Assembly: GCA_038105035.1 (NCBI GenBank)
Contig: JAYOBT010000003.1
Coordinates: forward strand, 4,379 to 68,378
DNA from: Candidatus Poseidoniales archaeon
Lineage (GTDB): Archaea; Thermoplasmatota; Poseidoniia; Poseidoniales; Poseidoniaceae
DNA length: 64,000 nucleotides
Direction: 5' to 3'
Both the position numbers and the translations under genes were made by a program. This document shows positions 2,156 to 64,000 of the stretch, one piece after another (position 1 is the stretch's first letter; every line of letters starts with the position of its first letter). The notes below the pieces were generated by a model. That model saw nothing but the letters and a program-made list of their open reading frames with translations. It was not told the DNA's origin and ran no database searches.

Positions 2156-2312
2156 GATTGCTCTTCCCCACTGGCAGTTTATCAAACAATTGGCACAAAT
2201 TCACCAAATTATTTACTCTGCATTACATTTTATTCATAATGCATTAGGCTGGGCTGTTTGCTTCTTGCGGCCAAAACCAAGCATTCATGACGTGTATCGG
2301 CATCCAGCACCC

Positions 2313-35462: not shown

Positions 35463-35506
35463 AAACCGATACTCATAGGTTTCCCCATCAGATGGCGGGC
35501 TCTTCC

Positions 35507-35514
35507 TTTATATA
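35507..35514 (+). promoter_or_regulatory. Archaeal TATA box (TTTATATA) driving a leaderless tbp transcript.
   Basis: The exact TTTATATA consensus at 35507-35514 ends 22 nt upstream of ATG 35537. This predicts a TSS at or 1-2 nt before the ATG. Confidence 0.6.
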
Positions 35515-35536
35515 TGCGGGGAGAAAGCCGCAACTC

Positions 35537-36151
35537 ATGACCACCGATGAAGAGCGCTTGACTGTTGTCAACGTCGTAGCAAGTACCCGCGTAGCCGAAG
35601 AACTCGATCTCCCTGACATCGCAATCCAACTCAATTGCGAGTACGAACCGGAACAATTCCCTGGTGTCGTTTACCGTGTCACGGACCCAAAACTCGCCAT
35701 TCTTATGTTCCGCTCAGGACGTGCAGTTTGCACTGGCGGAAAAGACGAGGACAATATTCACACAGGTATCGACCGAATGATCAAGGATTTGCGAGCTGCA
35801 GGAATCACAACATGGGACCTCAAAGATGTTGAAATCGAAGTCCAAAACATGGTTGCGACCTACGCACTTCACTACCCTGAAGACTACGATGGGAACGACA
35901 AGTTCACTGGTGCTCCACTTGCAGGAGAGCCACGTAAGTTGAACCTGAACAACCTCACCTTCCACTTGCCTTTCGACAAGGTCGAGTATGAGCCAGAACA
36001 ATTCCCTGGTCTTATCTATCGACTCGATTATCCTAAGGTTGTCTGTTTGATTTTCGGCAGCGGTAAAATGGTCATTACCGGTGCACGACACAAGGACGAA
36101 ATCTTGGAAGCAGTTGAAATCATCAAGGACGAACTTGCTGATCTCCTCTGA
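35537..36151 (+). CDS. tbp: TATA-box-binding protein.
   Basis: Two direct TBP repeats, each containing EYEPEQFPG (also a repeated 15-nt stretch gaacaattccctggt at the DNA level). Acidic C-terminal tail. The track start at 35492 would place the TATA box inside the CDS, so ATG 35537 was chosen. Confidence 0.93.
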   Translation: MTTDEERLTVVNVVASTRVAEELDLPDIAIQLNCEYEPEQFPGVVYRVTDPKLAILMFRSGRAVCTGGKDEDNIHTGIDRMIKDLRAAGITTWDLKDVEIEVQNMVATYALHYPEDYDGNDKFTGAPLAGEPRKLNLNNLTFHLPFDKVEYEPEQFPGLIYRLDYPKVVCLIFGSGKMVITGARHKDEILEAVEIIKDELADLL

Positions 36152-36196
36152 GGCCATCGTCGCACCTTTCATGTGCAAGAAGGTACAAGCGATAGC

Positions 36197-39697: not shown

Positions 39698-39721
39698 GTA
39701 CAAGGAAGCAGACATTCTGGC

Positions 39722-42700
39722 ATGGCGAACCGCATTCTTGCACTGCTTGTTTTGTTTCTCATGGCAGGTTCATCTGCCGTGCACGTTGTCAGCAACAACA
39801 CAACGGAACTCGACGAACTGCCAACCATTGAGCAATCCTCGGGTACGACAAGCTCCACAGATGTGCCAAGTTGGCGTATAGGTGACAAATGGACCTATGA
39901 GACACAATTTGATGTTTCTCAGCTGCTTGCACAAGCCAACGTATCTGCAAGCCTCAACACATTAACCGGAGATACTGTTTACGAGATTGATGACATCTTC
40001 TTCATCAATGTTGACGGAATCCAAACCCTTGCCTACAAGATGCTCATTGAAGGAGAATTCTCATCAGGAAACAATGGCGCTACGCTTGAAGGCGTGAGTG
40101 GAAGACTCGACATTGATTACTCTGGAGAGGACATCGTTCGAGTTCGAGATCTCGCAGTCATCAATTCGGAATTTGAATTGGACGTCGACTTTGCACCATT
40201 CAATCTTGGCTTCTTATCTCAGAAATTAGCCACAATATCATTTGACACCTACTACGATCCACCCAAAGAAAAATACGATTTCCCAATGAGAACGGGTGAC
40301 CAATGGTACATGCCCTTCATGTCGGGGACCAGTGTAAGCGGCTCATCGGATTACTTTGACCCAACGTCGTTTGATACACAAGGGGCTGAAAACACATCTT
40401 GGCAGGTCACCAAAGATGGTATTCCGACCGAAGACGGACAGAATATCAAATACGAAGGCTGTGATGATTCCTACAAGATCAACGAATGGAACGCTACTGG
40501 TGTAAGTGCTGGATTCAATTGGTATTGTCCAGCTGTTCGATTCAACTCTTGGATTCGAATCTCAAACGCTGCTGGATTCACGATTGATTGGCTGTTGAAA
40601 GATTACGAGCCTGTTGATTCGTTCGGCGTTGACAAGAGGAAGAACCCCGGTGGCAGAAACGTCGATATCGAGGTTGAAACACAATTCATCGCAACATTAC
40701 CAGATTCAATGTCAAAAATTTACGCAACATACTCGGTCGCTCCCAATGGCATTCCCGAGGTCAACAAAAACCTCCAATTGCGTTACGAAATGGCGGGAAC
40801 GCTGATCAATCCAACCACCAACGGTAGCGGACAGATTGAAGAAACAATCAACGTTTCAAATGTCGTTGATGACACGATTGCTAGCGACGATTTTAGCAGC
40901 AATGGCGTGATTGTCTGGGATCCAGTCCAGGAAATTATTGGCGTTGCTACAGTCGTCATCGACTTGTCTGTTGTGGGCATCGATTTGGTTGCTCAGGAAG
41001 ATTCCATCATCGTCACACGAACACGCAACGGAGAAGTTGCTACACTCTCCAAATCAATCGGCTACAACGCATTGCCTGGTGACGAACTTTCGTTCTCCTT
41101 GCCAGCCCAAAACAGAGGTGTTTTGCCGTCCCCTTCAACTGAAATGGAAATCGTCGTACCAGATGGTGATTCAAGCCGACAGGCTGTTCCATCCATCGAT
41201 GCATACAGTGAGCAACGAATTGTCATCGACTGGATTGTACCCGAGGAAACCACCATCGGCAATCAAACACTGACGTTCACCGTCGACCCAGATGAACTGA
41301 TCACAGGAGATGCCAATCGAAGCAACAACCAAGCAACAGTTGACGTCTTTATCGGTCGTGCCCCGAATGCCTCCATCTCCATAGATACTGGAAATTACAC
41401 ATTCGAGAACGTCTTGATTGACGCCCGGTCCTCTTTCGATCCTGACGGTGGGGACGTAGAGTGCCGATTTGAAATCGAGTCTCGACCAGGTCTTGTCGAT
41501 GTTATCACAACACCAGACTGTGCCATGAATTGGAACTGGTCCGACGATGGTGACTGGGAGATACGGACTGTTGTCACAGACGATGAGCTTGATACAACTG
41601 TATTGATCAGCAATGTCACCATCTTAAACAGAGCACCGTACATCAACCTCAGTCACCCGGCAGAAGTTGCTGTCGAATCCTCGATTACCATTGATGCAAG
41701 TGAAAGTGGAGACCTCGATACAATATCTCCATCGGGCCAGCAGGTCAGTGTATCTTGGCCTGATTTGAATTGTATCGAAGGGTTAACCCAACCGACGTGT
41801 ACATTCACGCCACTTGAAGAGGGTACGATGCCGATCCGTGCCATTGCAACCGATGACGATGGTGAGGAAACCGAAGTGCTCTCATCGATTGAAGTTCTCA
41901 ATGTCGCCCCGACCATTGGAGAAATAGGCGTGTGGATTTCAGGCGTAAACACGCCCTTCGATGCAAACGGAACGTGGATACTACAAGAAGATCAAACGGT
42001 TATCTTGCGCGCTCAAGGCGATGATACGCTCAACGACCGTGACGGACTTATCATCGATTGGAACCTCAGCGATGTTCTCGATAATCTCACCGTTTCAACC
42101 GATGGATCAGCCTCAGATGTTGCAACTTCATGGCCGACGTCAGGTGAACATATCATCTCAGTTCGAGCTGTCGATGATGATGGAGCAACTTCTTCGACAT
42201 CCCTGGCAAAAGTCACGATTGTCAACGTACCTCCAACCATGACCGCTGAAGCAAATTTCCTCAATGCTGTCAACAATGGCATCACAGTATCTGAAGACGA
42301 CAAAGTGGTCTTCGACGTCGCTGTCGATGACACCGCTTCCGACAAGGATTCATTGGAAGTTTGCTGGGATATTGATGGAACACGAGATGCAGATCTTGAT
42401 GGAACCCTAAACAACGATTGCGATGTGAGTGGTACTCATTTTGAATACACATGGGAAACCAGCAATCCTCAGTTCCAAACCGTGACGGCATGGGTGAAAG
42501 ATGACGATGGGGCCATGGCTTCAATCTCTGCTGTGGTGAAGGTTCAGAACGTGTTGCCAAGCGCTGAAATTTCGTTTGCGAATGGTTCGCTCGACAATTT
42601 GGTCAAGGGCGATACGCTCAATCTCACGTCTGATGGGACCTTTGACTCAGACTCGGACATTTTGAATATGCTCTACGTCTGGAAATTTGAATGGAGAGGC

Positions 42701-43306
42701 GAAAGCGACTTGGGAGAAACAGGCCCTGTTGTATCCATTGCAAATTTGCCAGTAGGTACATGGGACGTCAACCTCACTGTTACAGATGATGATCTAGCGT
42801 CTTCTACCACGACCATTACCATCGTTGTTTCAGAACCACCTCCTGAAGGATTCCTTGAGGAATTCAGCGATACACTGGGCGTGTCTCAGACCATGTCGAT
42901 TGTCATCATAGGCCTCGTTGTTTTGGTGATCGTGTTGGCATCGTTCCTCTTGGTCACTCGTCGTTCACCTCCGGATTTGGTCGAAACACCGTCAAACAAA
43001 GCATGGGATACAACTCCGTTACCGAGTTACGAACCCTCGGAAATGCCTGCATATGGACAGCCTGCACAACAAGCCCCTGCACAACCTGAACCCATCGCTG
43101 AGCAGCCTGTCACGAATCAAGGGCCACCACTTCCAGCCACTGGTCTACCGGCTGGTTGGACCATGGAACAATGGGCGTATTATGGTGAGCAGTACCTTGC
43201 TGCAAACCAAGCACCTGCACCCACCTATCAACCGACACCTTCAATGACTACACCATCGCCTCAGAATACGAATCTGTCCGACCTACTGGATGATTTGGAC
43301 CTGTGA
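39722..43306 (+). CDS. Giant type-I surface protein B (1194 aa), a tandem paralogue of protein A.
   Basis: MANRILALLVLFLMAGSSAVHV signal. PSWRIGDKWTY and GCDDSYKINEWNATGVSAGFNWYCPAV. PKD-like modules (ARSSFDPDGGDVECRF...W.W.DG). C-terminus IVIIGLVVLVIVLASFLLVTRRSPPD ... GPPLPATGLPAGWTMEQWAYYGEQYLA. Starts 24 nt after the protein A stop. Confidence 0.85.
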   Translation: MANRILALLVLFLMAGSSAVHVVSNNTTELDELPTIEQSSGTTSSTDVPSWRIGDKWTYETQFDVSQLLAQANVSASLNTLTGDTVYEIDDIFFINVDGIQTLAYKMLIEGEFSSGNNGATLEGVSGRLDIDYSGEDIVRVRDLAVINSEFELDVDFAPFNLGFLSQKLATISFDTYYDPPKEKYDFPMRTGDQWYMPFMSGTSVSGSSDYFDPTSFDTQGAENTSWQVTKDGIPTEDGQNIKYEGCDDSYKINEWNATGVSAGFNWYCPAVRFNSWIRISNAAGFTIDWLLKDYEPVDSFGVDKRKNPGGRNVDIEVETQFIATLPDSMSKIYATYSVAPNGIPEVNKNLQLRYEMAGTLINPTTNGSGQIEETINVSNVVDDTIASDDFSSNGVIVWDPVQEIIGVATVVIDLSVVGIDLVAQEDSIIVTRTRNGEVATLSKSIGYNALPGDELSFSLPAQNRGVLPSPSTEMEIVVPDGDSSRQAVPSIDAYSEQRIVIDWIVPEETTIGNQTLTFTVDPDELITGDANRSNNQATVDVFIGRAPNASISIDTGNYTFENVLIDARSSFDPDGGDVECRFEIESRPGLVDVITTPDCAMNWNWSDDGDWEIRTVVTDDELDTTVLISNVTILNRAPYINLSHPAEVAVESSITIDASESGDLDTISPSGQQVSVSWPDLNCIEGLTQPTCTFTPLEEGTMPIRAIATDDDGEETEVLSSIEVLNVAPTIGEIGVWISGVNTPFDANGTWILQEDQTVILRAQGDDTLNDRDGLIIDWNLSDVLDNLTVSTDGSASDVATSWPTSGEHIISVRAVDDDGATSSTSLAKVTIVNVPPTMTAEANFLNAVNNGITVSEDDKVVFDVAVDDTASDKDSLEVCWDIDGTRDADLDGTLNNDCDVSGTHFEYTWETSNPQFQTVTAWVKDDDGAMASISAVVKVQNVLPSAEISFANGSLDNLVKGDTLNLTSDGTFDSDSDILNMLYVWKFEWRGESDLGETGPVVSIANLPVGTWDVNLTVTDDDLASSTTTITIVVSEPPPEGFLEEFSDTLGVSQTMSIVIIGLVVLVIVLASFLLVTRRSPPDLVETPSNKAWDTTPLPSYEPSEMPAYGQPAQQAPAQPEPIAEQPVTNQGPPLPATGLPAGWTMEQWAYYGEQYLAANQAPAPTYQPTPSMTTPSPQNTNLSDLLDDLDL

Positions 43307-48357: not shown

Positions 48358-51300
48358 TCAAAGATTGAATTTTTCCGAACAAATCGGGCAGGTGACTTGA
48401 GCTCGCATCAAATCCGTCACAGGGAAATTGGCATTGCATGAAGGGCAGACAGCTTGCCGCCGAAGAGGTGGCAAATCTGCTAACGGTGGAAGCGCACCAG
48501 GTTCGAGTTCAGCCACTGGTAGAGGAGGTAGGCCTTCTGCGACAGGAATGGAAGGCAATGGTGCTGGGTTCGGTAATGGAGGGAGCCCTTTAGAAACAAT
48601 ATCTGCAATTTCACGATCCTGTTTTCTCTTCATGCGGCGATTGAGTCGTGCATTCCCTTCCCCAGCAATGCTCTTGGCTTCAAGTTCTTCTGCAAGTGTG
48701 GGTTCTTCCATCTCAACCTGCACTGGAGGACTTATTGGTACTGTAGCGACTAGTTCTTCCTCTTCGTCGTCTTCCTCTACGTGTACGAGAATGGCAACTT
48801 CATCTTCCTCAAGGACGTCTGCGTCGACAACATCTTCTTTTTTGCCAGAACGAAGAGAGATGACCACGAGAACGAACAGAATGAAAAGGACTGAAATCAG
48901 ACCAAGGAAAATCCTCACCTTCATTTTGTCCGACCCTGGAAGAGGTTCAAGCAGTTGCTCAAGCAGGGACTTTGCTTCCCCTGCATCTTGTTCCTCATCG
49001 AGGAGGAATTTCTGCATAGAAAAACGTCCTGTTTCAGATACGAGGAACAGAATTCCGTCTTGAGCATTCATACTGTATCCGAGAACCCCGTTCTCAGATA
49101 CAATGTTTCCAAGACCAAATACGGGTTGCTCTTTTTCACTTGTCAGAATTCCATAACGAGCTACTTTTCCACGGACTGTGATTTCATCGTAAATGACCTC
49201 GACCATATCGTTACGTTGGTTGTACAAGACAATGGATGCGCCTGGTGCCTGAACACGATACATCTCCTCGTCCCAATCTCCTTGGGTCGCTATCGTAACA
49301 ATCTCCGCATTTTGACCAGAACCTTCAATCCATGAGGCAAAAATGGTCTTATCGTTATCGATTGTTAGTATCGCAATTTGAGCAGAGAATGCGTCATCTC
49401 CAATCGAAGACTGGTACGACCATGAAGTCGACATGAGATCACCTCTTGCATACATCAAGCCACTTCGCTCGACTCCGGTTACATCGTCTCGTTCCTGTTG
49501 GAAGAGAATATGCAAGACTTCGTCATCGAGTACGGTCGACAACTTGTCACCATCATCGGGATGAATCTCGACGTTTGCGAGATGCGTCTTTGGCTCACTC
49601 CAACTCGCACCCTCATCGGGAGTGGAAGAATACAAACTGAAAATCGAGGTGACATCACTCCATGAGCCACCCGTGGAAATATTACGGTAGTATCCTGACA
49701 AAACCATTGTTCCATCATCCTCGGCCAAATCAAGTCCCCAATATTTGCCCTCGGAAATTTTCAGTGGCGTGAGGTGCTTGTGTATGGGAAGCATCTGCCC
49801 TGCAGAAGAAAAAGAAGTCATAGCAACATTGCTCATGAAGTATCCTTGCTCGCTTTGTTCTCTGCTCGTCCAAGCAGCATGCACCAACCCGTCTTCTCTA
49901 AGGTGAACGTCAAGTTCTCCTTCCCAGTTATCCTCGACGAGTGTGTCTGTCAGGAGCAAAAGATTGTCGTTCAAAGATCGAACGTGAAGTTCTCCGTCAA
50001 TCGATGTAAACACGAGCGTTGAGGATTCTACGCCGACAAAAGCAACAGGGAATTCGCCATCGGATAAGGAAAGCGTGGTTGAACCTGCAACGGTTGATAC
50101 ATCGCTCACTACAACACTGAACGTTGTCTGACTGAATTCGCTTTCGACACCATCTCCCGTAAGTGTAGCACGGTACAATACCGCGCCGATCTCATCTGAT
50201 TGATGTCTAAAGTCAACGGTGGTGTATCCGGATTCACTGGTAGCACCTGGAACGAAACCAATTCGTTCTTCATCAATAAGTTGCCATCCAGCCTCAGGAA
50301 TCCAATACTCAAGTGCTATGTCAAGAGAGAATGCTTCGGATTTGCCAAGGTTGTCAATCCGTAGGTCAATTCTGTATTCTTCATCCACTAAGGGGACGAC
50401 TGGCAAGGTCGTAACGAAGCCAGGCAAGTAGCGTAGTACGGGTTGATCTGGTCGTTCCAAAATTTCGTAATCGATGGTGTACACATTGTCCGAGGTATCA
50501 GGGTCACCTTGTGCGTTGTTCGGATCCAGTTCAATCTGAACTTGATGCAACCCTGCAACGGTCGCAGACCAAAACAACGTGACTTGGACTGATTCTCCTT
50601 TTGGCAGATCAGGAATGAGGCCTTGCGAAGGATAGATTTCAGATTCATCCCCCGGAGCAACCAGTCGAACAAAGATATCCGAGGCATCAGCATCACCTGC
50701 ATTGTAGACCTCAAACTTGATCTCAAGTAAACTTCCTTGATACGCCTCTTCTGCTGGCATGCCGCGATTCAGCACCTCAAAATCACCAACAAATCGCAAC
50801 GATGGCGCAGGGTCAACGTTGTCGATTGTGTAACTCCTTTGAACGATTTTTGATTCTTTTCCGGAGTTGTTCACCATGCGTACAGAGAGTTCTCTGAATC
50901 CATCATCAACTTCGGTTGTATCCCAGTTGAACGACCAAACTGACTTCCCATCTTCGCCTGGATTGTTATTGGTTTGAATTGTACTACCAAACAACCATTC
51001 GCCATCATCGACACGGTACTCGATTCGATCATGCTCCACGCCTTCAACTTCTCCTTTGACTTCAACCGTACCTGTCAAGGAGTTTCGCGAGATGGGCGTA
51101 TCTATCAGGATACTTTCTCGAGAAACCTTGAACTTGCGATAAGCCACGTTGGAAACGTTTCCATCATCGTCGGAGGCTTTAGCATGTAGAAGTAAGAACT
51201 TCTCATTCGAGCTATAATCGACCCATGAATCTTGAACTTCAACATCGAGGAACCAACTTTCCATGGTACCATTGGCTTCAGTCCAATCCAGCAGCATCTT

Positions 51301-53205
51301 TGGACCACGATTGTTGAAATGTTGCTCAATGTACACCTCAACACGTTGATAGGCGATTTCGGTCATGTTGACTTCCCCTGAAATGCGAGTGAATGAATCG
51401 CTCAGCAACCACGTTCCATTGGAAGGATAACTTACGTTGACATCGCTCTTTGATTCTTTCACTACGAACCCGTTGTCGCATGGAACGCCCTCGATTGAAT
51501 TCACGGCACATGCTGCGTCGATGATTCCAAATCCGTACTTTTCATTCCATCTCTCGGACAAGGTTTCGTCGTATGGGTCTCCTCTTTGTTCGGAACTGTT
51601 TCGAAGAATATCCTTTACTTCCTGAGGGCTGAGGGACGAATCGGCTTCCAACATGAGCGCAACAATTCCCGAAGCAATCGGAGTGGCCATGCTCGTCCCT
51701 GACTTCGAATCGTATTGGTCGTCCGCAAGACCCGTATCTCCCGGTATCGGTAATGATGTTCCGTAGGTCGCTGAGATAATGTTGTGGCCATACGATGTGA
51801 TGTCTGGTTTGAGTTCATCCCATTCATCATCATCTCCATCGCTAATTCGTGGGCCCCAATTTGAGAAATCAGAATGCTCGTCGTCATCGCGTAGGATTGT
51901 GTTCTTGTCGTTGACTGAGCCGACTGTGATTGCACCGTCTGCACTTCCAGGGGACGGTACTCTGTTGCTACCATCGTTACCGATGGCTACAACACAGATG
52001 ATACCTTCAGCAGTGGCTTGGTTAATGAGTGATGCCTCAGCGCTTGTTCCATTATCCCCCTGATCGCCTGCATTAAGAGGAGTCCCCACAGAGCCGTACG
52101 ACATGGATGCGACCTGAATACCACGGTATGTCGAGTTGATGCCCCAGTCCGTATCCTTGTTGTTGATCATCCATTGGATTCCAGCTAAACTCGCTTGCGA
52201 ATTGGTTCCACCGCTGTCTGTTAAGACCTTGATATCAACCAAAGCAGCACCAGGAGCAGTTCCTCTGTGAGTACGGGTTGTATCGCCTGTGCCCAATGCA
52301 GAACCTGCTACGTGCGTTCCGTGACCGTTTCCATCGTCTGGATCGGCGGAGCCATCTGGATTCGGATTTGGAGAAGTCGCATCAAAACCTGCGACCCACT
52401 TCTGGTCGCTGTAAGTTGATGCATCTGCATCGGGTGCATCATCGATGTCATCAAAATCATTGAGGGAACGATGTTCATTATCGACACCAGTGTCCATCAC
52501 TGCAATAACGACCCCTGTTCCATAGTAACCCAACTCATGTGCTGTGTTTCCGTATTCCTGTGAAGGACGTGCCAGTGCTGCTTTTGAAGCAACATCGTTC
52601 AATGGAGCCATGACGTTTTGCATCTCAACAACGACAACTCCCTCAAGGTGATAAATATCCATGAGAGCGGATACAGGGACCTTGTCGACAACGATGCTGT
52701 CAATACTCCGCAGTACTTCGAACCAAGCGCCATTCTCAATACCAATCCAACCATGGGCATCGAGCGTTGTCTTCAGAGAAGTGATCTCTGGCTCTGAAGG
52801 ATGCCACGCGTAATCGACGACGATAGCCACCGTTTTGCGACCATCTGGGCCAATGATGGCCGTAGGTGACGCTGAATCCATGCCGTCAAGAACACGCTGT
52901 AGTCGATCATCCATCCCATTCCAGTCAAGGTCTGGACCGTAGGCCTGCCACCATCCGTAATCCAAGGAAGCGGCTCGACCTTGACGGTCGTACATTCGAA
53001 GTGGGCGGTCGCACAACTCATCACCACACATGAGTGGAGGGAGCCCTTCGACCATAATCGGAGGCGCATGTGTAGGTTCTTGCACCTCAGGAAGCGTTTC
53101 TATTGCCTGAACTTGTGATGCCATAGGCAACAAAAGCATGAGCAAAACCAAGAACAATGCCTGCCTTGGATTCGAATAACGAGACCTTCCGCTCATAATC
53201 GCCAT
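48358..53205 (-). CDS. Giant (1615 aa) membrane-anchored subtilisin-like serine peptidase (S8). It has C-terminal beta-rich domains, a TM helix, a poly-acidic stretch, GLPPLP repeats and a terminal C4 zinc ribbon.
   Basis: Signal MAIMSGRSRYSNPRQALFLVLLMLLLPMASQVQA. Catalytic triad motifs VIAVMDTGVD (Asp), HGTHVAGS (His), GTSMATPIASG (Ser). C-terminus GLISVLFILFVLVVISLRSGKKED (TM), EEDEVAILVHVEEDDEEEE, KGLPPLPNPAPLPSIPVAEGLPPLPVAELEPGALPPLADLPPL, CPSCNANFPVTDLMRAQVTCPIC. Confidence 0.9.
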   Translation of the reverse strand: MAIMSGRSRYSNPRQALFLVLLMLLLPMASQVQAIETLPEVQEPTHAPPIMVEGLPPLMCGDELCDRPLRMYDRQGRAASLDYGWWQAYGPDLDWNGMDDRLQRVLDGMDSASPTAIIGPDGRKTVAIVVDYAWHPSEPEITSLKTTLDAHGWIGIENGAWFEVLRSIDSIVVDKVPVSALMDIYHLEGVVVVEMQNVMAPLNDVASKAALARPSQEYGNTAHELGYYGTGVVIAVMDTGVDNEHRSLNDFDDIDDAPDADASTYSDQKWVAGFDATSPNPNPDGSADPDDGNGHGTHVAGSALGTGDTTRTHRGTAPGAALVDIKVLTDSGGTNSQASLAGIQWMINNKDTDWGINSTYRGIQVASMSYGSVGTPLNAGDQGDNGTSAEASLINQATAEGIICVVAIGNDGSNRVPSPGSADGAITVGSVNDKNTILRDDDEHSDFSNWGPRISDGDDDEWDELKPDITSYGHNIISATYGTSLPIPGDTGLADDQYDSKSGTSMATPIASGIVALMLEADSSLSPQEVKDILRNSSEQRGDPYDETLSERWNEKYGFGIIDAACAVNSIEGVPCDNGFVVKESKSDVNVSYPSNGTWLLSDSFTRISGEVNMTEIAYQRVEVYIEQHFNNRGPKMLLDWTEANGTMESWFLDVEVQDSWVDYSSNEKFLLLHAKASDDDGNVSNVAYRKFKVSRESILIDTPISRNSLTGTVEVKGEVEGVEHDRIEYRVDDGEWLFGSTIQTNNNPGEDGKSVWSFNWDTTEVDDGFRELSVRMVNNSGKESKIVQRSYTIDNVDPAPSLRFVGDFEVLNRGMPAEEAYQGSLLEIKFEVYNAGDADASDIFVRLVAPGDESEIYPSQGLIPDLPKGESVQVTLFWSATVAGLHQVQIELDPNNAQGDPDTSDNVYTIDYEILERPDQPVLRYLPGFVTTLPVVPLVDEEYRIDLRIDNLGKSEAFSLDIALEYWIPEAGWQLIDEERIGFVPGATSESGYTTVDFRHQSDEIGAVLYRATLTGDGVESEFSQTTFSVVVSDVSTVAGSTTLSLSDGEFPVAFVGVESSTLVFTSIDGELHVRSLNDNLLLLTDTLVEDNWEGELDVHLREDGLVHAAWTSREQSEQGYFMSNVAMTSFSSAGQMLPIHKHLTPLKISEGKYWGLDLAEDDGTMVLSGYYRNISTGGSWSDVTSIFSLYSSTPDEGASWSEPKTHLANVEIHPDDGDKLSTVLDDEVLHILFQQERDDVTGVERSGLMYARGDLMSTSWSYQSSIGDDAFSAQIAILTIDNDKTIFASWIEGSGQNAEIVTIATQGDWDEEMYRVQAPGASIVLYNQRNDMVEVIYDEITVRGKVARYGILTSEKEQPVFGLGNIVSENGVLGYSMNAQDGILFLVSETGRFSMQKFLLDEEQDAGEAKSLLEQLLEPLPGSDKMKVRIFLGLISVLFILFVLVVISLRSGKKEDVVDADVLEEDEVAILVHVEEDDEEEELVATVPISPPVQVEMEEPTLAEELEAKSIAGEGNARLNRRMKRKQDREIADIVSKGLPPLPNPAPLPSIPVAEGLPPLPVAELEPGALPPLADLPPLRRQAVCPSCNANFPVTDLMRAQVTCPICSEKFNL

Positions 53206-56368: not shown

Positions 56369-56527
56369 ATGGCGGAAGGAATGACGTATCTTGCTGTGGC
56401 ATATCTCGGCATGCTCGTAGCCATCGGCCTTTGGACCTGGACGGTCTTTGCAAGAAGCAATGACCTTGAGAAAAGGATTGAGGCTGTTGAACGAAGCTTC
56501 GAAAAGGTTGGTCACGAACAGGAGTGA
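56369..56527 (+). CDS. ccmD: Heme exporter protein CcmD-like small single-pass membrane protein (52 aa; below the ORF-track length cutoff).
   Basis: Manual translation of ATG 56369 to TGA 56525-56527 gives MAEGMTYLAVAYLGMLVAIGLWTWTVFARSNDLEKRIEAVERSFEKVGHEQE. This is one TM helix plus a charged tail, positioned immediately after ccmC as in system I operons. Confidence 0.55.
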   Translation: MAEGMTYLAVAYLGMLVAIGLWTWTVFARSNDLEKRIEAVERSFEKVGHEQE

Positions 56528-56532
56528 GTTCA

Positions 56533-57600
56533 ATGAGTCGAGGGCTTGGTGGTGACTTTTGCCTCGTATGCGGAAACGAGCCACCTCTGTTCACCGACAA
56601 AATGTGTGAACCATGTACACGAAAACGAACCAAACTCGCCGAAGTACCTGAAAATACGAATTTTACGCAATGTGCTCGGTGCGGATTGATCGACATCCAA
56701 GGCCGTTGGGTCAACATTCCAGAAGATACATTGTGGGACGAATTAATTCAACGAAACGTTTCGTTTCATGAACGTGCAGAAGAGGTTGGTTTAGGTTTCG
56801 AACCACGTACTGTTTCTGACCGACATACTTTGCTCCATATGCAGATGGAAGGCGTCATTGACGATCTCTTGTACACTGAAGAACACACCATGAGGGCCCG
56901 TCGTTCAAACGGTGTGTGTCTGACATGCACAAGGCGGGCTGGAAACTATTTCGAGGCGACTGTGCAACTTCGCTCAACTGGTCGCCGACTCGAAGAAGGT
57001 GAACTCAACAACCTGCGAGCAAGTCTTGACAATGTTATCGAACAACTAAGCGATGATCCAATGTTTTTCATCACCAATGAGGGTCCTGTAACGGGTGGCT
57101 ACGATGTGGTGATGGGATCGAAGGGACTTGCTCGAGCATGGGGTCGTCATTTGATTGAACATTGGGGAGGGCAAGTCACAGAAACCAATTCCACAGTCGG
57201 GCGAAAAGATGGTGTTGATGTTACACGGCTGACACTGCTCTACCGCAAACCAGGATACGATCTCGGAGATGTCGTTCGTTGGCGTGGCGAGTTGTGGCGG
57301 CCAAGTTCTTGGAGCAAAGATGGTGCCATCATGGAGCGTATATCTCGCCAAGAACGTACAGGTGCTACATGGAGAGACTTGGACGGGGTGAAAGTGTTGT
57401 CACAGATGGACGACCACATGGTTGTCGATATTCTCAACCGCGATGATTCAGCAGCGGAATTCTTGGACCCAAACACATGGCAAATGACCTCGGTGCGTCT
57501 TCCTTGGGACTATGACGGTGCAGCACAATTGCGACTCGCTCGAGTTGATGGCGAATACATCGCCTTGCACGATATGGCTCTTGACCACTCCAATCGATAG
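56533..57600 (+). CDS. nmd3: Nmd3-family protein (archaeal homologue of the 60S ribosomal subunit export adaptor).
   Basis: N-terminal double CxxC zinc-binding region CLVCGNEPPLFTDKMCEPC...CARCG...CLTC, followed by the Nmd3 OB/SH3-like region. About 355 aa. ATG at 56533; the track start at 56524 is GTG. Confidence 0.78.
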   Translation: MSRGLGGDFCLVCGNEPPLFTDKMCEPCTRKRTKLAEVPENTNFTQCARCGLIDIQGRWVNIPEDTLWDELIQRNVSFHERAEEVGLGFEPRTVSDRHTLLHMQMEGVIDDLLYTEEHTMRARRSNGVCLTCTRRAGNYFEATVQLRSTGRRLEEGELNNLRASLDNVIEQLSDDPMFFITNEGPVTGGYDVVMGSKGLARAWGRHLIEHWGGQVTETNSTVGRKDGVDVTRLTLLYRKPGYDLGDVVRWRGELWRPSSWSKDGAIMERISRQERTGATWRDLDGVKVLSQMDDHMVVDILNRDDSAAEFLDPNTWQMTSVRLPWDYDGAAQLRLARVDGEYIALHDMALDHSNR

Positions 57601-59338: not shown

Positions 59339-59410
59339 GGACCGAAGAAGGGATTCACCTCTAAGAGTTCATGCATGAACTTGATGTGATGCTTGAACGA
59401 GCGGCTGAGC

Positions 59411-61747
59411 ATGTGGGAGGTTGTGATTGCGGTTCTCCTCCCAACCATTGCTCCGGGTCTTGCGTTGCTGCGTGTCCTCGATGCATCTGCGGATACGTTT
59501 CGAAAAGCATTGCTGTGCTTTCCAATCGGACTCTTGGCGTTGTATGGGACCTCTGGTTTGCTGTTTGTCCTTCAAACATGGAGCGTAACAAATCTGACTG
59601 TCGCAATCGTCCTCCTGAATGCCTTATCGATTGCATTCTTGTTCCGCAAAGTACAGGTTGAGCGCACCACATACACTCAATGGCAAAAGATGGAAGCAGC
59701 GATTCATGGCCTTGTTCTCAGCGAATCTGAGCCTGAAATTGAACAAGAGGTTGCTGCGCAACAATGGTTCCAGAGCAATAGAAATCCATTGCTTCAGATT
59801 GCAGCAGGGTGCTTTTGTCTCCTAACGTTGGTCCCAATTGTCATGTTTGATCGTCCGTTCGGGGTCGATTGGATTGGATTCAGTACACTTGCGAGCCATG
59901 TCGGTCAATCAGGAACCTTTGAGGTTCCATCACCAAATGCTGGGTTATGGACGTATCCTCCTGCGTTCCCGACCGTACTTGCTTGGATTGTCCATGTGAC
60001 AGGATCATCCATCGAACAAACGATTCTTATTCAGGGTCATCTCTCACTCTTTGCACTCCTTCTCGGAATTTGGGGGAGTATGGATCGACTCGGAGCAGGT
60101 GCTTCGAGTGTGCTTGCGATGGGTGGTTCTTTCGCATTGTATGCAAAAGTGTTCGACTCAGGCTACCCCACCGTGGCAAGCCAATTGGGACTGGTCGTGG
60201 GATTGATGATTGTTCTTCGCCCGATTCAACAATCACTTCGCTATCATCTGGTAACGTTTGTTTTCCTTTCAATCTGCACTGTCCTCATCCATCCAACTGG
60301 AGCCATCTATCTTGCAGCATTGCTCGTAGCCAGTCTCCTAACCAGAGAACGGTTATCGGAAGACGAGAAATCAAACCAGAGACCAATTTTCTTGACGTCG
60401 ATCCTCATTGTGAGTTCAATGTTCATCATTGCTCTCATCTATTTTGCACCACGTATGCTAAGTGAGCCTGTCTTTGCGGAATACGGGTGGCAAGGCGGCA
60501 AGCCCATGCTCATGTTCAATGGACTGTTGATGCTTTTTGCAGGTTTTTCGATCTTCTTGGGACGAAAGAGTCGCGAAATCCAATTGCTATCCCTCTGGTT
60601 CTTGGCCTTGTGGCTTCTCTCATTTGTGCATCTGATTGAAGGGTTGGCAAACATTCAGGTTCTAAGCCTGCTCTCTTACACACTTTACTCCATGGCACTG
60701 CATGCCTATCACGTCCCATTAGCAGTGATTGTGGGGTTGCTTGCTAGTCGGTCAACGTCGTTGACAACAGTTGATGATTCAAAGTCATGGTTTGGATTGG
60801 AAATGGATCCGTTCATTCGACCACTGTACAGTTCAATCTTCCTTGTCGTACTTGTTCTTGGATCGATGTTGAGTGTTGGTTTGTTGGCCAACCTTTCAAC
60901 CCACGAAGAACTTCACGCAACAACATCAGGTGATGGTGAACTTCGAGCCTATCTCCTCAAACATCCCCCAGATAAATTCGTCTATTCTGAAAACGTTCAC
61001 TGGGGCCATAGTTACGCCTTCGATGCATCAATTCAAACAACAAGCCTGCCCACACTCGGGCTTTTGACGTTGGATGAAACCATACAGGGTGCGGCGACTA
61101 CAGCCATACGTTTGGATGATGTTGAGACCTTGAAGCAGCTTGGTATCGGTTATGCGGTCTCAAGCCCGATTGGGACGATTGCATTGACCTTGGGTCCGTC
61201 CCCCTATTGGAGCATGGAGCAGGAATTTTCAGGAGCTCGATATTGGAAGGTATGGGACGAACCATCTCCTACACGGGTTTCCTCTGTTGTTACCTTGAAT
61301 CAAGGTGAATGCATGTCAAAGAAAGGGTGTGTACTGGAAGAAGATCCCTGGCGCAATCATCGCTTCAACGACCCGCTTGAACGTGGCGAACAACGGATTG
61401 TTCTCAGCAAGAAAAGCGCATATGTCTGGGATGAAGTACTGAATGAGACAAATCATCAGGGCATGTACAAGATTTGTGTCGTTTACGAGCAAATCGGTTT
61501 GTTTGAAGATTATTCGATCACATTCAATGATGAATCCTTGGACTTGGAGAAAACAGCCGGATGGAACATGGCATGTCACAATCTACAACTCGATCAGCGA
61601 CTTGATGTTGAATTCAACTTGGATTCGGATGGCTCATCCTGGATCAACCCACTAGGATTTTCCGGAAGGAGCTCAAAAATTGTTGATTCAACTGGACTCC
61701 GCATTCATCATTTGGAATTGAATCGGCTAAATCCTGCGAAGGCATGA
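59411..61747 (+). CDS. Large polytopic membrane protein (about 13 TM helices plus an about 300-aa C-terminal soluble domain). It is probably a GT-C-fold glycosyltransferase using a polyprenol-phosphate sugar donor.
   Basis: Dense N-terminal TM domain (VVIAVLLPTIAPGLALL, LLCFPIGLLALYGTSGLLFVL, TVAIVLLNALSIAFLF, GCFCLLTLVPIVMF, ...). C-terminal globular region. Immediately followed by a Dpm1-like GT2 gene. The family assignment is inference. ATG at 59411; the track start is TTG. Confidence 0.4.
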   Translation: MWEVVIAVLLPTIAPGLALLRVLDASADTFRKALLCFPIGLLALYGTSGLLFVLQTWSVTNLTVAIVLLNALSIAFLFRKVQVERTTYTQWQKMEAAIHGLVLSESEPEIEQEVAAQQWFQSNRNPLLQIAAGCFCLLTLVPIVMFDRPFGVDWIGFSTLASHVGQSGTFEVPSPNAGLWTYPPAFPTVLAWIVHVTGSSIEQTILIQGHLSLFALLLGIWGSMDRLGAGASSVLAMGGSFALYAKVFDSGYPTVASQLGLVVGLMIVLRPIQQSLRYHLVTFVFLSICTVLIHPTGAIYLAALLVASLLTRERLSEDEKSNQRPIFLTSILIVSSMFIIALIYFAPRMLSEPVFAEYGWQGGKPMLMFNGLLMLFAGFSIFLGRKSREIQLLSLWFLALWLLSFVHLIEGLANIQVLSLLSYTLYSMALHAYHVPLAVIVGLLASRSTSLTTVDDSKSWFGLEMDPFIRPLYSSIFLVVLVLGSMLSVGLLANLSTHEELHATTSGDGELRAYLLKHPPDKFVYSENVHWGHSYAFDASIQTTSLPTLGLLTLDETIQGAATTAIRLDDVETLKQLGIGYAVSSPIGTIALTLGPSPYWSMEQEFSGARYWKVWDEPSPTRVSSVVTLNQGECMSKKGCVLEEDPWRNHRFNDPLERGEQRIVLSKKSAYVWDEVLNETNHQGMYKICVVYEQIGLFEDYSITFNDESLDLEKTAGWNMACHNLQLDQRLDVEFNLDSDGSSWINPLGFSGRSSKIVDSTGLRIHHLELNRLNPAKA

Positions 61748-61773: not shown

Positions 61774-62517
61774 GTGAAACGTTTGATGATTCTGCTTCCT
61801 GTCCTCAATGAGGCAGAAGGTTTGCGTTTGGTGTTGGAAACAATACCTCATGCATTGCTTGAAGAAGCGGGCTGGCAATCTGATATCGTCATCGTTGATG
61901 GGAAAAGTACGGATGCATCCCCTCAAGTTGGTGCCGATGCTGGCTGTATCGTTTTGGTCCAACCTACAAAAGGCAAGGGTGAAGCAGTTCGATTTGGATT
62001 CACCTATGCGCTCCAGCATAGGTATGATGCTGTCATCATGTTCGATGCAGACCAAACGTACAATCCAATGGATATGCTGAGGATGCTGGAAAGGCTCGAG
62101 CCAGGTATGGTGGTTGTCGGAAATCGATTGAATCACCACCTAGCAAGTGATGCCATGTCACCAACCAACTGGATTGGAAATCATCTTCTAACATGGTCAG
62201 CAGTTATCCTTCATGGGCTTGAAATCCATGATGTATGCAGCGGCTTTTGGTTGTTCGAACGAGAGGCTTTGGTGCAAATGAACTTGAACAGCATGGATTT
62301 CGAAATCGAGGCAGAGATGTACGCACAGTGTGCCATCTCTGGAATTCCTCTCGCCAACGTGCCAATCTCCTATAGTGCACGTGTCGGTGAGGCAAAATTG
62401 GGTTCTCTTCGAGATGGTTCATCCATTCTGAGAAAACTTCTGGTCCGCAAGTTGTTCCCCCTACCCGTTGAAGAAGAATTAGGACAAGGAAAATTAGCGT
62501 TTGAATCCAAGAACTGA
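61774..62517 (+). CDS. GT2-family polyprenol/dolichol-phosphate glycosyltransferase (Dpm1/AglD-like).
   Basis: MILLPVLNEAEGL (P-x-x-NE motif). IVIVDGKSTDAS (D-x-S-T-D). MFDADQTY (DxD-equivalent). About 245 aa, soluble. Start ambiguous between GTG 61774 and ATG 61786. Confidence 0.78.
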   Translation: MKRLMILLPVLNEAEGLRLVLETIPHALLEEAGWQSDIVIVDGKSTDASPQVGADAGCIVLVQPTKGKGEAVRFGFTYALQHRYDAVIMFDADQTYNPMDMLRMLERLEPGMVVVGNRLNHHLASDAMSPTNWIGNHLLTWSAVILHGLEIHDVCSGFWLFEREALVQMNLNSMDFEIEAEMYAQCAISGIPLANVPISYSARVGEAKLGSLRDGSSILRKLLVRKLFPLPVEEELGQGKLAFESKN

Positions 62518-62769
62518 GTGTATTGGAATCAATCCATAGTTGTGTGAATCGGTCGAGGCTGTGGGATCGGGATTGTCTCCCTCTACAAAAAGTCCGTTCG
62601 CTTCTATACGCTTCAATCGCTTGATGCAAATTCTTGAGGTGTTGCGGGGGTCTGGAAACACAACAACATCGCCTGATTGTAGTTGTTGGTTGTTGTAGAC
62701 ACACACCTTGATCGTGTCGCCATCTTTGAGTGTCGGCCACATGCTGTCGCCATGAACGACCACAGCCAT
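62494..62769 (-). CDS. sodX: NiSOD maturation endopeptidase SodX (S26/S24 signal-peptidase-like).
   Basis: VVVHGDSMWPTLKDGD is the S24/S26 catalytic-Ser motif (GDSMxPT). Catalytic Lys in RICIKRL. Small, about 91 aa. Lies 18 nt downstream of sodN on the same strand. Confidence 0.7.
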   Translation of the reverse strand: MAVVVHGDSMWPTLKDGDTIKVCVYNNQQLQSGDVVVFPDPRNTSRICIKRLKRIEANGLFVEGDNPDPTASTDSHNYGLIPIHSVLGFKR

Positions 62770-62787
62770 TGATTCCAACGAATCGCC

Positions 62788-63228
62788 TCAGCTTGCTCGG
62801 ACCCAAGAGACTTCGCGTCCCTTGGTTGTCCAGAACATGTTGTGGATCGCTTCGACAGCATCCATCAACTCTTGCGCATGTTGTTCAGAGACTTCGACTT
62901 TGCAAGCAGAGCAAAGTTTTGCAGCCATCCAAAACGTTGTGTGAAGATCTGGGTTGGACTCAAGATGTTGAGGCTTGAAGAAATCGGTCCAAAGAACGAG
63001 AAGTTCATCCTTGCACTTCTGTGCTTCTTCTTCCTTGATGGCTGCGTAGCGGCTCATGGTGTTGATGTATGAGGCAGAGGACTTGTCTGCATCGCCAGTG
63101 CTCAATGCAACCATTTTCTTGGTCATTGATTGCACGGCTTCTGCTGCAACACGTGCGCTTGCAGGGTCGTAGACGCCACATGGGCCGTCACAGTGGGCAA
63201 AGGCTTCGATGGTGATGGTGTTCTCCAT
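62788..63228 (-). CDS. sodN: Nickel-containing superoxide dismutase precursor.
   Basis: Ni-hook H-C-D-x-P-C-G-V-Y: MENTITIEAFA|HCDGPCGVYDPA, with an 11-aa leader before the His that becomes residue 1 after SodX cleavage. About 145 aa, four-helix-bundle length. ATG at 63228; the track ORF has an 18-aa upstream extension. Confidence 0.85.
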   Translation of the reverse strand: MENTITIEAFAHCDGPCGVYDPASARVAAEAVQSMTKKMVALSTGDADKSSASYINTMSRYAAIKEEEAQKCKDELLVLWTDFFKPQHLESNPDLHTTFWMAAKLCSACKVEVSEQHAQELMDAVEAIHNMFWTTKGREVSWVRAS

Positions 63229-63319
63229 GTCGGTGCCTTGGATGTCGAGCACTTGAAGATATGCTTTGGAGCAATTTCTCAATGCAAGGGACTAAAATGA
63301 CGAAGTGTGAGACTCGGAC

Positions 63320-64000
63320 ATGCCAAGGGTTCGAGTGGCTATCCTTGGTGCTTCAGGCTTGGTATCGCAGCGCATGCAGCAACGTCTCGCTATGCATCCC
63401 TATTTCGAATTGGTTGCAGTTGCTGGACAATCTCCCGGAATGAAACTCTCGCTTGTTGACTGGCATCTGGATGAACCACGGCCCCTATTTATCGAATCAA
63501 GCGAGATGAAAATCCTCGATATCAACGATCGAAACTTAGCAGATGAACTCAGAAATCGAAACGTGAGTGTTGTCTTCAGTGCATTGCCAAGTGAACCTGC
63601 GTCGAGGATTGAAGCAAATCTCGTCAGTGCTGGGCTTCACGTCTTCTCCAATGCGAGCGCCTATCGGATGCATCCTGATGTTCCGCTTGTAGTTGCTGAT
63701 GTCAATCCTGAAGCCCTTCAAACACCTCAAGGTATGGCCATCCATGCATGTGCAACAAACTGCACGCTCATTCCGATTCTTCACCCACTTGCTGTTCTCT
63801 CACAACATTACACCATCACCAAAGTGGTTGCTCGAAGTGAACAGGCCCTTTCTGGAGCAGGTTGGAAGCTTCTCCACAGTCAGGAATTAAGACATCAGGC
63901 CATCGATCAGGAAATCTCAGGCGAGGCTGAAAAAATCGTCGAAGAGATTGAACGAATTCTCAATCTCAATAGTGAATGGGATGTGCAAACAAAGCGCGTC
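63320..64000 (+). CDS. asd: Aspartate-semialdehyde dehydrogenase, partial (runs off window 3' edge).
   Basis: Manual translation from ATG 63320: MPRVRVAILGASGLVSQRMQQRL...AIHACATNCTLIPILHPL. This is N-terminal NAD(P) GxxGxxG plus catalytic Cys in the N-C-T context. No stop before 64000. Confidence 0.82.
   Translation, partial: MPRVRVAILGASGLVSQRMQQRLAMHPYFELVAVAGQSPGMKLSLVDWHLDEPRPLFIESSEMKILDINDRNLADELRNRNVSVVFSALPSEPASRIEANLVSAGLHVFSNASAYRMHPDVPLVVADVNPEALQTPQGMAIHACATNCTLIPILHPLAVLSQHYTITKVVARSEQALSGAGWKLLHSQELRHQAIDQEISGEAEKIVEEIERILNLNSEWDVQTKRV

Follow-up and report, generated by a model that had tools for sequence, protein, structure and literature searches.

A nickel superoxide dismutase gene pair, sodN-sodX, on a contig of Poseidoniaceae (Marine Group II a)

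Genomic organization and archaeal context

The window, meaning the whole 64-kb stretch of DNA that was analysed, carries a gene for a nickel superoxide dismutase (NiSOD) precursor, sodN, followed on the same strand by sodX, which encodes the NiSOD maturation protease (Table 1). The pair lies between a convergent glycosyltransferase gene and a divergent aspartate-semialdehyde dehydrogenase gene (asd). It had been reported as complete in a preliminary description, and this was borne out by matches to the TIGR02753 and TIGR02754 models, by a PDB match and by the peptidase S26 boxes of SodX.

Table 1. Coordinates of the genes and sequence features in the window
Feature	Position	Strand	Remarks
TBP	35492..36151		171.8 bits
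NMD3	56524..57600		124.4 bits
GT2 glycosyltransferase, AglJ-like	61774..62517	plus	convergent with sodX, 3' overlap of 24 nt
sodX, NiSOD maturation protease	62494..62778	minus	94 aa from TTG 62778 (91 aa from ATG 62769); profile match and S26 boxes
sodN stop TGA plus GG, forming the Shine-Dalgarno-like motif GAGG	62786..62790	minus	7 nt before the sodX TTG
sodN, NiSOD precursor	62788..63228	minus	146 aa; profile, PDB and fold matches
CSAC (Cys106, Cys109)	62902..62913	minus	third long helix of SodN; invariant in 35-sequence alignment
Ni-hook HCDGPCGVYDPA	63160..63195	minus	read directly from the sequence
Propeptide MENTITIEAFA	63196..63228	minus	11 aa; ends in the small-x-Ala motif AFA directly before His12
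Non-coding block AAAGCATATCTTCAAGTGCT	63248..63267	minus	spans 20-39 nt before the sodN ATG
Non-coding block TTTAGTCCCTTGC	63284..63296	minus	sodN-asd divergent intergenic region, some 25 nt before the asd ATG
asd, archaeal/eukaryotic type	63320..64000	plus	divergent from sodN; runs off the window end

The flanking GT2 protein scored 53.2 bits against Glycos_transf_2, and its best NCBIfam match was TIGR04182 (AglJ) with 154 bits, a score below the cutoff of that model. The asd product, incomplete in the window, matched Semialdhyde_dh with 84 bits and, as its best subtype, asd_EA (TIGR00978) with E = 3e-39. Both flanking genes were syntenic in 32 loci. The archaeal neighbours named in the preliminary description, TBP and NMD3, could also be recovered in the window.

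The best 80 GTDB loci all belonged to Poseidoniales MAGs. Among these, the eight-gene order NMD3-PGI-M23-membrane protein-GT2-sodX-sodN-asd was whole in 24 loci and present in parts in 27-32, and the MAGs sharing it came from many independent studies. The GC and tetranucleotide composition was unremarkable at the window end (z < 0.7). Because the synteny recurs across MAGs and the composition is flat, the contig is not chimeric, which settles a doubt raised at the outset; the window is a contig of Poseidoniaceae (Marine Group II a, MGIIa) and its archaeal context is genuine. A mis-assembled or mis-binned bacterial fragment at the contig end, which would make this context an artefact, would agree with the bacterial nature of the nearest non-MGII relatives and with two close loci that carry bacterial record titles (L004, 'Rhodobiaceae'; L008, 'Salipiger'). 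However, sodX and sodN lie between the AglJ-like glycosyltransferase gene and the archaeal-type asd with NMD3 5 kb off, no break is visible in GC content or in the tetranucleotide profile, and the eight-gene order recurs in independent MAGs, L004 and L008 included. The titles of the latter two records are wrong, since both loci share the Poseidoniales gene order. The probability of a bacterial fragment is therefore vanishingly small.

The SodN of the window was 79-98% identical to those of the Poseidoniales MAG loci, and its exact sequence was absent from the matches returned, the best of which reached 96-98%. SodN remained 88-98% identical between species whose flanking genes were 57-91% identical, while the fraction of identical synonymous codons in sodN dropped from 0.81 to 0.55. 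Since this drop is in step with the flanks, the pattern points to strong purifying selection on sodN and not to a recent sweep. A recent spread of sodN among MGIIa, considered in view of an amino acid identity of 95-98% vs 66-80% in the neighbouring genes, was rejected because synonymous divergence tracks the flanks.

Analysis of the NiSOD precursor

The ATG of sodN at 63228 was kept, as MEN..., across the 32 syntenic loci. The NCBIfam profile search of SodN against TIGR02753 returned 183.9 bits (cutoff 90), and Pfam Sod_Ni (PF09055) was matched with 158.9 bits (cutoff 25) over profile positions 3-127 of 127. A phmmer search against the PDB aligned the protein over its full length with the mature Streptomyces NiSOD 1q0d (E = 2.4e-24), residue 1 of which corresponds to SodN His12. 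The AF2 model (pLDDT 85.2) revealed a four-helix bundle with helices at residues 23-44, 52-83, 95-111 and 115-135, in which the hook was disordered, as it is in apo structures. Foldseek comparison of the model with 1q0d gave a TM of 0.91, and the top 16 matches were all NiSOD (target-normalised TM 0.88-0.92). SodN is thus a NiSOD by family, motif integrity and fold.

The Ni-hook had been described as intact, and it aligned as expected: HCDGPCGVY (residues 12-20) lines up, position by position, with residues 1-9 of 1q0d, so that His12, Cys13 and Cys17 stand for the mature ligands His1, Cys2 and Cys6, and Tyr20 for Tyr9. The hook 12-mer HCDGPCGVYDPA was identical in the window and in 79/79 parsed loci (79 of the best 80; L046, which contains Ns, was left out). 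The proposed 11-aa propeptide also stood, its last residue preceding His12, the first residue of the mature enzyme. In the same 79 loci the propeptide was 6-18 aa long and always ended in [A/G/V]-x-A, with Ala at position -1 in every case.

The Streptomyces enzyme (1q0d, 1t6u) shares the fold, the conserved His1/Cys2/Cys6/Tyr9 and a propeptide that also ends in Ala, but its identity to the window SodN is only 42-46%, its hook reads HCDLPCG instead of HCDGPCG, and it lacks both CSxC and a 10-residue stretch of the SodN loop between helices 1 and 2. CSAC could be found in MGII, in cyanobacteria, in a eukprot protein and in P0135/P0406; among the remaining sequences it occurred in one representative only (P0162), and the Streptomyces-type proteins were without it. 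Across the sequences compared, CSAC marks the SodN subfamily of the cyanobacterial type. The SodN of Prochlorococcus and Synechococcus, 60-64% identical to that of the window overall, agrees with it fully in HCDGPCGVYDPA, in KLCSACK and in the C-terminal KGR....AS; the cyanobacterial protein lacks Cys72, which is an MGII-specific addition.

These additional cysteines (C72, C106 and C109 relative to the characterised Streptomyces enzyme) could be taken to mean that SodN has drifted to a role other than superoxide dismutation, such as nickel storage or sensing. Such a drift is highly improbable, as all catalytic-hook residues are invariant and the CSxC pair is common to the Prochlorococcus-type SodN. 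Moreover, NiSOD was reported in eight of eight MGIIa clades and Fe/MnSOD in none of them (PMC10783094); because these clades have no other SOD, SodN is the sole candidate SOD of MGIIa.

The SodX peptidase and the sodN-sodX junction

SodX scored 69.8 bits against TIGR02754, a small margin over the cutoff of 63.25, and the match covered profile positions 3-86 of 90. Its earlier assignment as an S26-like protease was confirmed by a Peptidase_S26 match of 47.9 bits and by the boxes GDSMWPT (Ser12), IKRL (Lys53) and GDNPDPTASTDSHNYG (GDN..S.DS..YG), which align to signal peptidase I (4me8, 4wvh, 4nv4). The GxSMxP motif was present in 79/79 parsed loci and KR[LIV] in all but four, while a hydrophobic membrane anchor was absent from SodX. 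In 80/80 Poseidoniales loci (the best 80 in GTDB), sodX lay directly 3' of sodN or overlapped it.

The position of sodX 3' of sodN had been described correctly, but the gap of 18 nt reported between them had to be revised. The junction alignment of 32 loci revealed that most sister species have ATT, ATC, ATA, TTG, CTG or TTT where the window has the ATG at 62769, and that the TTG at 62778 is conserved. Because the TTG is conserved, the ATG is not, and GAGG stands 7 nt upstream, sodX probably starts at TTG 62778, which gives a SodX of 94 aa and a gap of 9 nt. The TGAGG at the junction was likewise conserved in this alignment, and the overlap of GAGG with the sodN stop suggests translational coupling of the two genes. 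MGIIb differs in that the sodX ATG overlaps sodN by 19 nt.

SodX was conserved far less than SodN: its identity was 59-86% among the syntenic loci and 38-56% between families. This lower conservation, the margin of only 6.5 bits over the TIGR02754 cutoff and the existence of cyanobacteria that carry sodN without sodX (PMC8346466) would fit a generic or degenerate signal-peptidase fragment that does not process SodN; maturation would then depend on another protease, or SodN would be inactive. That alternative is nevertheless very unlikely: sodX adjoins or overlaps sodN in all 80 loci although the genomic context changes, the Ser, Lys and GDN boxes are kept, the size fits the 90-residue family model without a membrane anchor, and the small-x-Ala site is present in the SodN of every parsed locus.

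Phylogenetic position and origin

In the neighbour-joining tree of SodN, which is unrooted as NiSOD has no outgroup, the MGII sequences formed one clade in 200/200 bootstraps. Deep nodes were weak (MGII with P0407, 61/200; the whole cyanobacterial-type clade, 82/200). P0407, the closest non-MGII protein with 69% identity, is encoded on a bacterial-looking contig with a tandem sodN-sodN-sodX arrangement. The nearest named relatives were those of Leptolyngbya (73%), Waterburya (71%) and Prochlorococcus/Synechococcus (62-64%), whereas all compared SodN outside the cyanobacterial-type subfamily reached at most 50% (Streptomyces, 46%). The phylogenetic check proposed in the preliminary description thus placed bacterial sequences as the nearest neighbours of the MGII clade. 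By its sequence, the sodN-sodX pair belongs to a 'HCDGPCG / CSxC' subfamily that is otherwise found mostly in marine cyanobacteria.

Published work attributes the MGII NiSOD to inter-domain transfer (Sutherland et al. 2021, bioRxiv 10.1101/2021.01.12.426412; Qu et al. 2023, PMC10783094), with conflicting sister groups, Marinisomatota in the former and Cyanobacteria in the latter. When a Marinisomatota-labelled sequence was sought as the MGII sister, none was present among the SodN homologues retrieved. NiSOD with the invariant hook occurred in both Poseidoniales families, and the pair was most likely acquired from a bacterium in a single event, by the ancestor of Poseidoniales and ahead of the MGIIa/MGIIb split. 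The initial suggestions of a transfer from bacteria or of a wider archaeal distribution are both supported, as the gene is widespread among Poseidoniales and its nearest relatives are cyanobacterial-type bacteria.

A transfer in the reverse direction, with Poseidoniales as donors to cyanobacteria or other bacteria, or a NiSOD ancestral in the archaeal lineage, would be compatible with a NiSOD tree that cannot be rooted and with bootstrap values below 50% for MGII nested among bacterial sequences; flow from MGII to cyanobacteria was stated as not excludable by Qu et al. (PMC10783094). Against this, NiSOD is broad in bacteria, whereas in other archaea it is rare and its distribution patchy; the subfamily that shares this hook and CSxC covers many cyanobacterial orders and other bacteria; and MGII forms a single tight clade (80-98% identity) while cyanobacterial SodN is more diverse. 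Only a small probability is thus left to these two alternatives, and entry from a bacterium is preferred.

Intergenic elements and cluster composition

The block AAAGCATATCTTCAAGTGCT was near-invariant in the 32 syntenic loci, while the intergenic sequence around it varied. It occurs once in the window, where 0 chance matches are expected, and can be regarded as a candidate archaeal promoter or operator. The second block, TTTAGTCCCTTGC, was conserved in the 32 loci with one exact copy in the window, and may represent the TATA element of asd. A scan of 62300..63500 revealed no sigma-70 promoters or intrinsic terminators, and the tRNA and Rfam scans of the 64-kb window gave no matches.

The order of sodN followed by sodX is the same in Prochlorococcus (L082), the SodX of which is 41% identical to that of the window. 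Cyanobacterial SodN has a longer propeptide (about 20 aa vs 11 aa), and the gap between the genes is wider (about 80 nt vs 9 nt, or an overlap in the case of MGIIb). In cyanobacteria, sodT, the gene for a UreH/HupE-like nickel permease, is co-localised with sodN and sodX (PMC4284471), and a His-rich SodT-like permease with six transmembrane segments adjoins the Prochlorococcus pair, whereas the MGII loci are without it. In a tblastn search with the Prochlorococcus SodT-like query (L081 4842-5513), neither the window nor any of the 80 MGII loci (within 6 kb) yielded a SodT-type permease, and no nickel permease was found among the window ORFs scanned with Pfam.

It is conceivable, though unlikely, that Poseidoniales took only the sodN-sodX core of a cyanobacterial-type nickel cluster, without SodT, and rewired it under an archaeal element, with AAAGCATATCTTCAAGTGCT as the putative site of a nickel- or redox-responsive archaeal regulator and not a plain promoter. 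If so, the CSxC pair together with the MGII-specific Cys72 could add a redox or second-metal function. In Streptomyces, NiSOD is subject to Nur/sRNA regulation (PMC3919588).

Functional interpretation and significance

The best reading of the locus, with a probability of about 0.9, is a sodN-sodX operon that is functional and has been inherited vertically in an MGIIa (Poseidoniaceae) archaeon. In this operon, sodN and sodX would be co-transcribed and probably translationally coupled. SodN would be made as a precursor, which the small, soluble S26-type peptidase SodX is predicted to cut after Ala11 (AFA|H), making His12 the new N-terminus. Ni(II/III) would then be bound by the amine and imidazole of His12, the amide and thiolate of Cys13 and the thiolate of Cys17, and the four-helix-bundle enzyme would dismutate cytoplasmic superoxide.

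The NiSOD of MGII and its origin from cyanobacteria-like bacteria are already published, and the published gene (Qu et al. 2023; Sutherland et al. 2021) is the same gene from the same archaeal order; the observation is correct but ordinary. These two studies make no mention of the sodX gene, the propeptide or the hook. What is added here is minor, namely the obligate sodX linkage, the conservation of the cleavage site, the corrected sodX start, the lack of a linked SodT and the upstream blocks. The window adds one more member to the family, and the operon details help annotation and the design of heterologous expression, while the overall picture is unchanged. Expression of this kind, in E. 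coli with added Ni and with or without sodX, is reported for the sodN/sodX of Prochlorococcus MIT9313 (Eitinger 2004). MGII are uncultured and among the most abundant archaea of the surface ocean, and with NiSOD reported as the sole SOD in all MGIIa clades, their oxidative-stress defence would be tied to nickel and not to iron.

Identification of sodN and sodX

The nickel superoxide dismutase (NiSOD) precursor SodN scored 158.9 bits against the Pfam family Sod_Ni (cutoff 25) and 183.9 bits against the NCBIfam equivalog TIGR02753 (cutoff 90). Translated from its in-frame ATG, the protein begins with MENTITIEAFA followed by HCDGPCGVYDPA, and the nickel hook could be read directly from the sequence. 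A phmmer search against the PDB aligned His12 with the first residue of Streptomyces NiSOD in its mature form (1q0d; E = 2.4e-24); His1, Cys2, Cys6, and Tyr9 of 1q0d were all retained, and the only sizeable alignment difference was an insertion of 10 residues in the loop that joins helices 1 and 2. The AlphaFold2 model, built from an input alignment of 35 sequences (pLDDT 85.2), revealed a four-helix bundle with a disordered N-terminus of 18 residues, and its 16 best PDB matches were NiSOD chains throughout (target-normalised TM, TMt, 0.88-0.92). Family membership, fold, and ligand residues thus bear out the preliminary description of SodN as having an intact hook behind an 11-residue propeptide.

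The next ORF, sodX, matched the nickel-type SOD maturation protease family TIGR02754 (69.8 bits, cutoff 63.25) as well as the Peptidase_S26 and S24 profiles. Alignment with bacterial signal peptidase I crystal structures identified box B (GDSMWPT, with the catalytic Ser), box D (IKRL, with the catalytic Lys), and box E (GDN..S.DS..YG), in keeping with the S26-like SodX protease proposed to follow sodN. The protein is only 91-94 amino acids long and carries no hydrophobic anchor; it should therefore be a soluble cytoplasmic enzyme. The adjacency of the two genes was described correctly, while the reported spacing of 18 nt relies on an ATG at 62769, a codon which is usually ATT, ATC, ATA, TTG, CTG, or TTT in 32 syntenic relatives. 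The TTG at 62778 is conserved among them, and a GAGG formed by the sodN stop codon and the next two bases (TGA-GG) lies 7 nt upstream of it. A TTG start with a 9-nt gap and translational coupling is the better-supported model on this sequence comparison. Unlike in the window, the sodX ATG of Thalassarchaeaceae (MGIIb) genomes overlaps sodN by 19 nt. Downstream, sodX converges with an AglJ-like GT2 glycosyltransferase gene on the forward strand; their 3' ends overlap by 24 nt (62494..62517), and therefore no room is left for a terminator in between.

Features of the NiSOD locus and its genomic surroundings (window positions)
Feature	Position	Strand	Remarks
sodN ORF	62788..63282	-	in-frame ATG at 63228; 146 aa from that ATG
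Ni-hook of SodN	63160..63195	-	
CSAC (CSxC pair, SodN helix 3)	62902..62913	-	
sodX ORF	62494..62778	-	
Block AAAGCATATCTTCAAGTGCT	63248..63267	-	20-39 nt before sodN ATG
Block TTTAGTCCCTTGC	63284..63296	-	about 25 nt before asd ATG
784-aa multi-pass membrane protein	59393..61747	+	no Pfam match
NMD3	56524..57600		profile match
TBP	35492..36151		171.8 bits
Two PKD-domain proteins (about 1,180 aa each, one also CARDB) and S8 subtilase with CARDB (1,615 aa)	36173..43306 and 48358..53205	+ and -	
AhpC/TSA peroxiredoxin	2112..2798	+	123 bits

Genomic context and contig integrity

The archaeal setting claimed for the operon was confirmed by the TBP and NMD3 genes. The immediate neighbours of sodN-sodX are the AglJ-like GT2 and the aspartate-semialdehyde dehydrogenase gene asd, which among the subtypes matches the archaeal/eukaryotic asd_EA best. 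Directly upstream of the GT2 gene lies the 784-aa membrane protein, which is kept in 28 syntenic loci at 60-87% identity and may be part of the N-glycosylation machinery. The window also encodes a GHMP kinase whose N-terminus gives a faint diphosphomevalonate-decarboxylase-like match. The PKD/CARDB proteins and subtilase are large, belong to the cell surface or are secreted, and are typical of Marine Group II archaea (MGII, Poseidoniales) that degrade protein. Besides sodN, the window has another antioxidant gene, that of the peroxiredoxin, in line with reports that most MGII genomes encode thioredoxin-dependent peroxiredoxins.

A chimeric contig with a bacterial end, raised in the preliminary description as a possible explanation, was rejected on the basis of gene order and composition. 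With each GTDB species represented by a single genome, the scan found a SodN relative encoded in 337 genomes, and the best 80 loci (79-98% identity) belonged to Poseidoniales without exception, covering both Poseidoniaceae (MGIIa) and Thalassarchaeaceae. The arrangement GT2-sodX-sodN-asd was found as in the window in 32 of these 80 and extended through the 784-aa membrane protein, an M23 peptidase, PGI, and NMD3 in 24-28 loci. GC content was flat across the window (0.46-0.51), and in tetranucleotide distance the final 1.5-kb windows departed from the window mean by no more than 0.7 sd.

Two syntenic loci carry bacterial record titles, namely L004 (CALDQY010000003.1, 'uncultured Rhodobiaceae bacterium') and L008 (CAXQWT010000090.1, 'Salipiger bermudensis'). 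In both, the genes follow the archaeal order of the window in full, with SodN 95-97% identical. The titles are wrong because the content is archaeal (NMD3 93-97% identical), and these MAGs are mislabelled or mis-binned. Such titles would yield false bacterial nearest neighbours, which calls for caution in label-based inference of horizontal transfer.

Conservation across Poseidoniales and the upstream region

SodX adjoins SodN in 80/80 loci by tblastn. Motifs were parsed in 79 loci, leaving out one containing Ns (L046). In all 79, the hook 12-mer was the same, the AAKLCSACK motif was invariant, and an ORF with GxSMxP, the conserved Ser/Lys peptidase of the operon, began at the end of sodN. The propeptide varied from 6 to 18 amino acids and always ended in small-x-Ala (AFA, ASA, AEA, GHA, AHA, AYA, VFA, or ANA), a conserved signal-peptidase-type cleavage site. 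Conservation in the neighbourhood was highest for SodN, at 88-98% identity against 57-91% for flanking genes. A recent sweep of sodN was rejected, since its identical-codon fraction at conserved residues dropped from 0.81 to 0.55 along with that of the flanks (approximately 0.6 to 0.38). Strong purifying selection is evident, and the pattern fits vertical descent. The GC3 of sodN (0.55) is near that of TBP and higher than in most other genes sampled, in accord with high expression and full amelioration of the gene.

The divergent sodN-asd intergenic region spans 91 nt. Two blocks within it hardly change across 32 species in which the coding flanks are down to 57-90% amino-acid identity, and the remainder is variable; each block occurs as one exact copy in the window. 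Neither a sigma-70-like promoter nor an intrinsic terminator was found in a scan of 62300..63500. At a comparable distance, other MGII lineages, in different contexts, carry a CAT-n-TTGATA[AT]-like element, with GAGG between it and the ATG. We infer that the blocks may be archaeal promoter elements (TATA/BRE) for sodN and a near-leaderless asd; they are also a candidate operator for a metal- or redox-responsive regulator.

Relatives outside Poseidoniales

When SodN was compared with a library of representatives clustered at 50% identity, its top full-length match was the Prochlorococcus-type homologue P0121 (63%); among the neighbours of P0121 is a protein named Prochlorococcus sp. SP3034. In a further homologue search with named sequences, identity to the mature SodN of the window was 73% for Leptolyngbya, 71% for Waterburya, 67-69% for other marine cyanobacteria, and 62-64% for Synechococcus and Prochlorococcus; all compared sequences outside the subfamily reached 50% or less (Streptomyces, 46%). 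The hook variant HCDGPCG and a CSxC pair in helix 3 are common to MGII, cyanobacteria, a eukprot protein, and the orphan homologues P0135 and P0406. The Streptomyces-type hook is HCDLPCG, without CSxC, and other representatives have HCD[IV]PCG, with CSxC in one of these only. Cys72 (in KCK), the fifth Cys of MGII SodN, corresponds to Thr in aligned picocyanobacterial sequences. The neighbour-joining tree agrees with the marker; MGII SodN was monophyletic in 200/200 bootstraps, while deeper nodes were weak (MGII with P0407, 61/200; whole cyanobacterial-type clade, 82/200). The bacterial affinity proposed at the outset is supported.

Outside MGII, the SodN nearest to that of the window is P0407 (69% identity), encoded on a 46-kb contig (locus L083, 9269..10877, +) where two tandem sodN copies precede an S24/S26 peptidase gene (sodX). 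This contig looks bacterial (PEPCK_ATP, FGE-sulfatase, TPR, sulfotransferase) and could represent the Marinisomatota-type sister group of Sutherland et al., who reported archaeal NiSOD, nine Poseidoniales included, and proposed inter-domain transfer with sequences placed within Marinisomatota and not close to cyanobacteria (bioRxiv 10.1101/2021.01.12.426412). Qu et al. (2023), analysing 250 MGII genomes, found NiSOD only, without Fe/MnSOD, in all eight MGIIa clades and several MGIIb clades, with cyanobacteria as the sister cluster and a transfer between the ancestors of MGII and cyanobacteria whose direction was not strictly resolved (PMC10783094). On the sister group, the present data agree with Qu et al. 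The operon finding is accurate and its interpretation supported, and MGII NiSOD with its bacterial affinity is already published. Neither study mentions sodX, a protease, maturation, or the hook; the present analysis adds minor points, namely that sodX is linked to sodN, that its start codon needed correction, that sodT is absent, that conserved blocks lie upstream, and that two MAGs carry wrong titles.

Nickel supply and proposed maturation

Prochlorococcus has the same gene order, sodN then sodX, and its SodX is 41% identical to that of the window. Cyanobacterial sodX has been described as a maturation protease gene (PMC8346466), and sodT as a UreH-family nickel permease gene co-localised with sodN and sodX (PMC4284471). 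A His-rich, six-transmembrane SodT-like gene adjoins sodN-sodX in the Prochlorococcus loci (L081, 4842..5513, -; L082, 4382..4942, -), whereas tblastn with the Prochlorococcus query gave no match in the window or, up to 6 kb from sodN, in any of the 80 MGII loci. The scanned ORFs of the window likewise included no recognisable nickel permease, and therefore nickel supply is not explained by this window.

By analogy with the Streptomyces and Prochlorococcus enzymes, SodX would cut off the 11-residue propeptide of SodN, and the new His1 N-terminus would fold into the nickel hook. Ligands to the metal would be the amine and imidazole of His1, the amide N and thiolate of Cys2, and the thiolate of Cys6, and Ni(II)/Ni(III) cycling by the mature enzyme would dismutate cytoplasmic superoxide.
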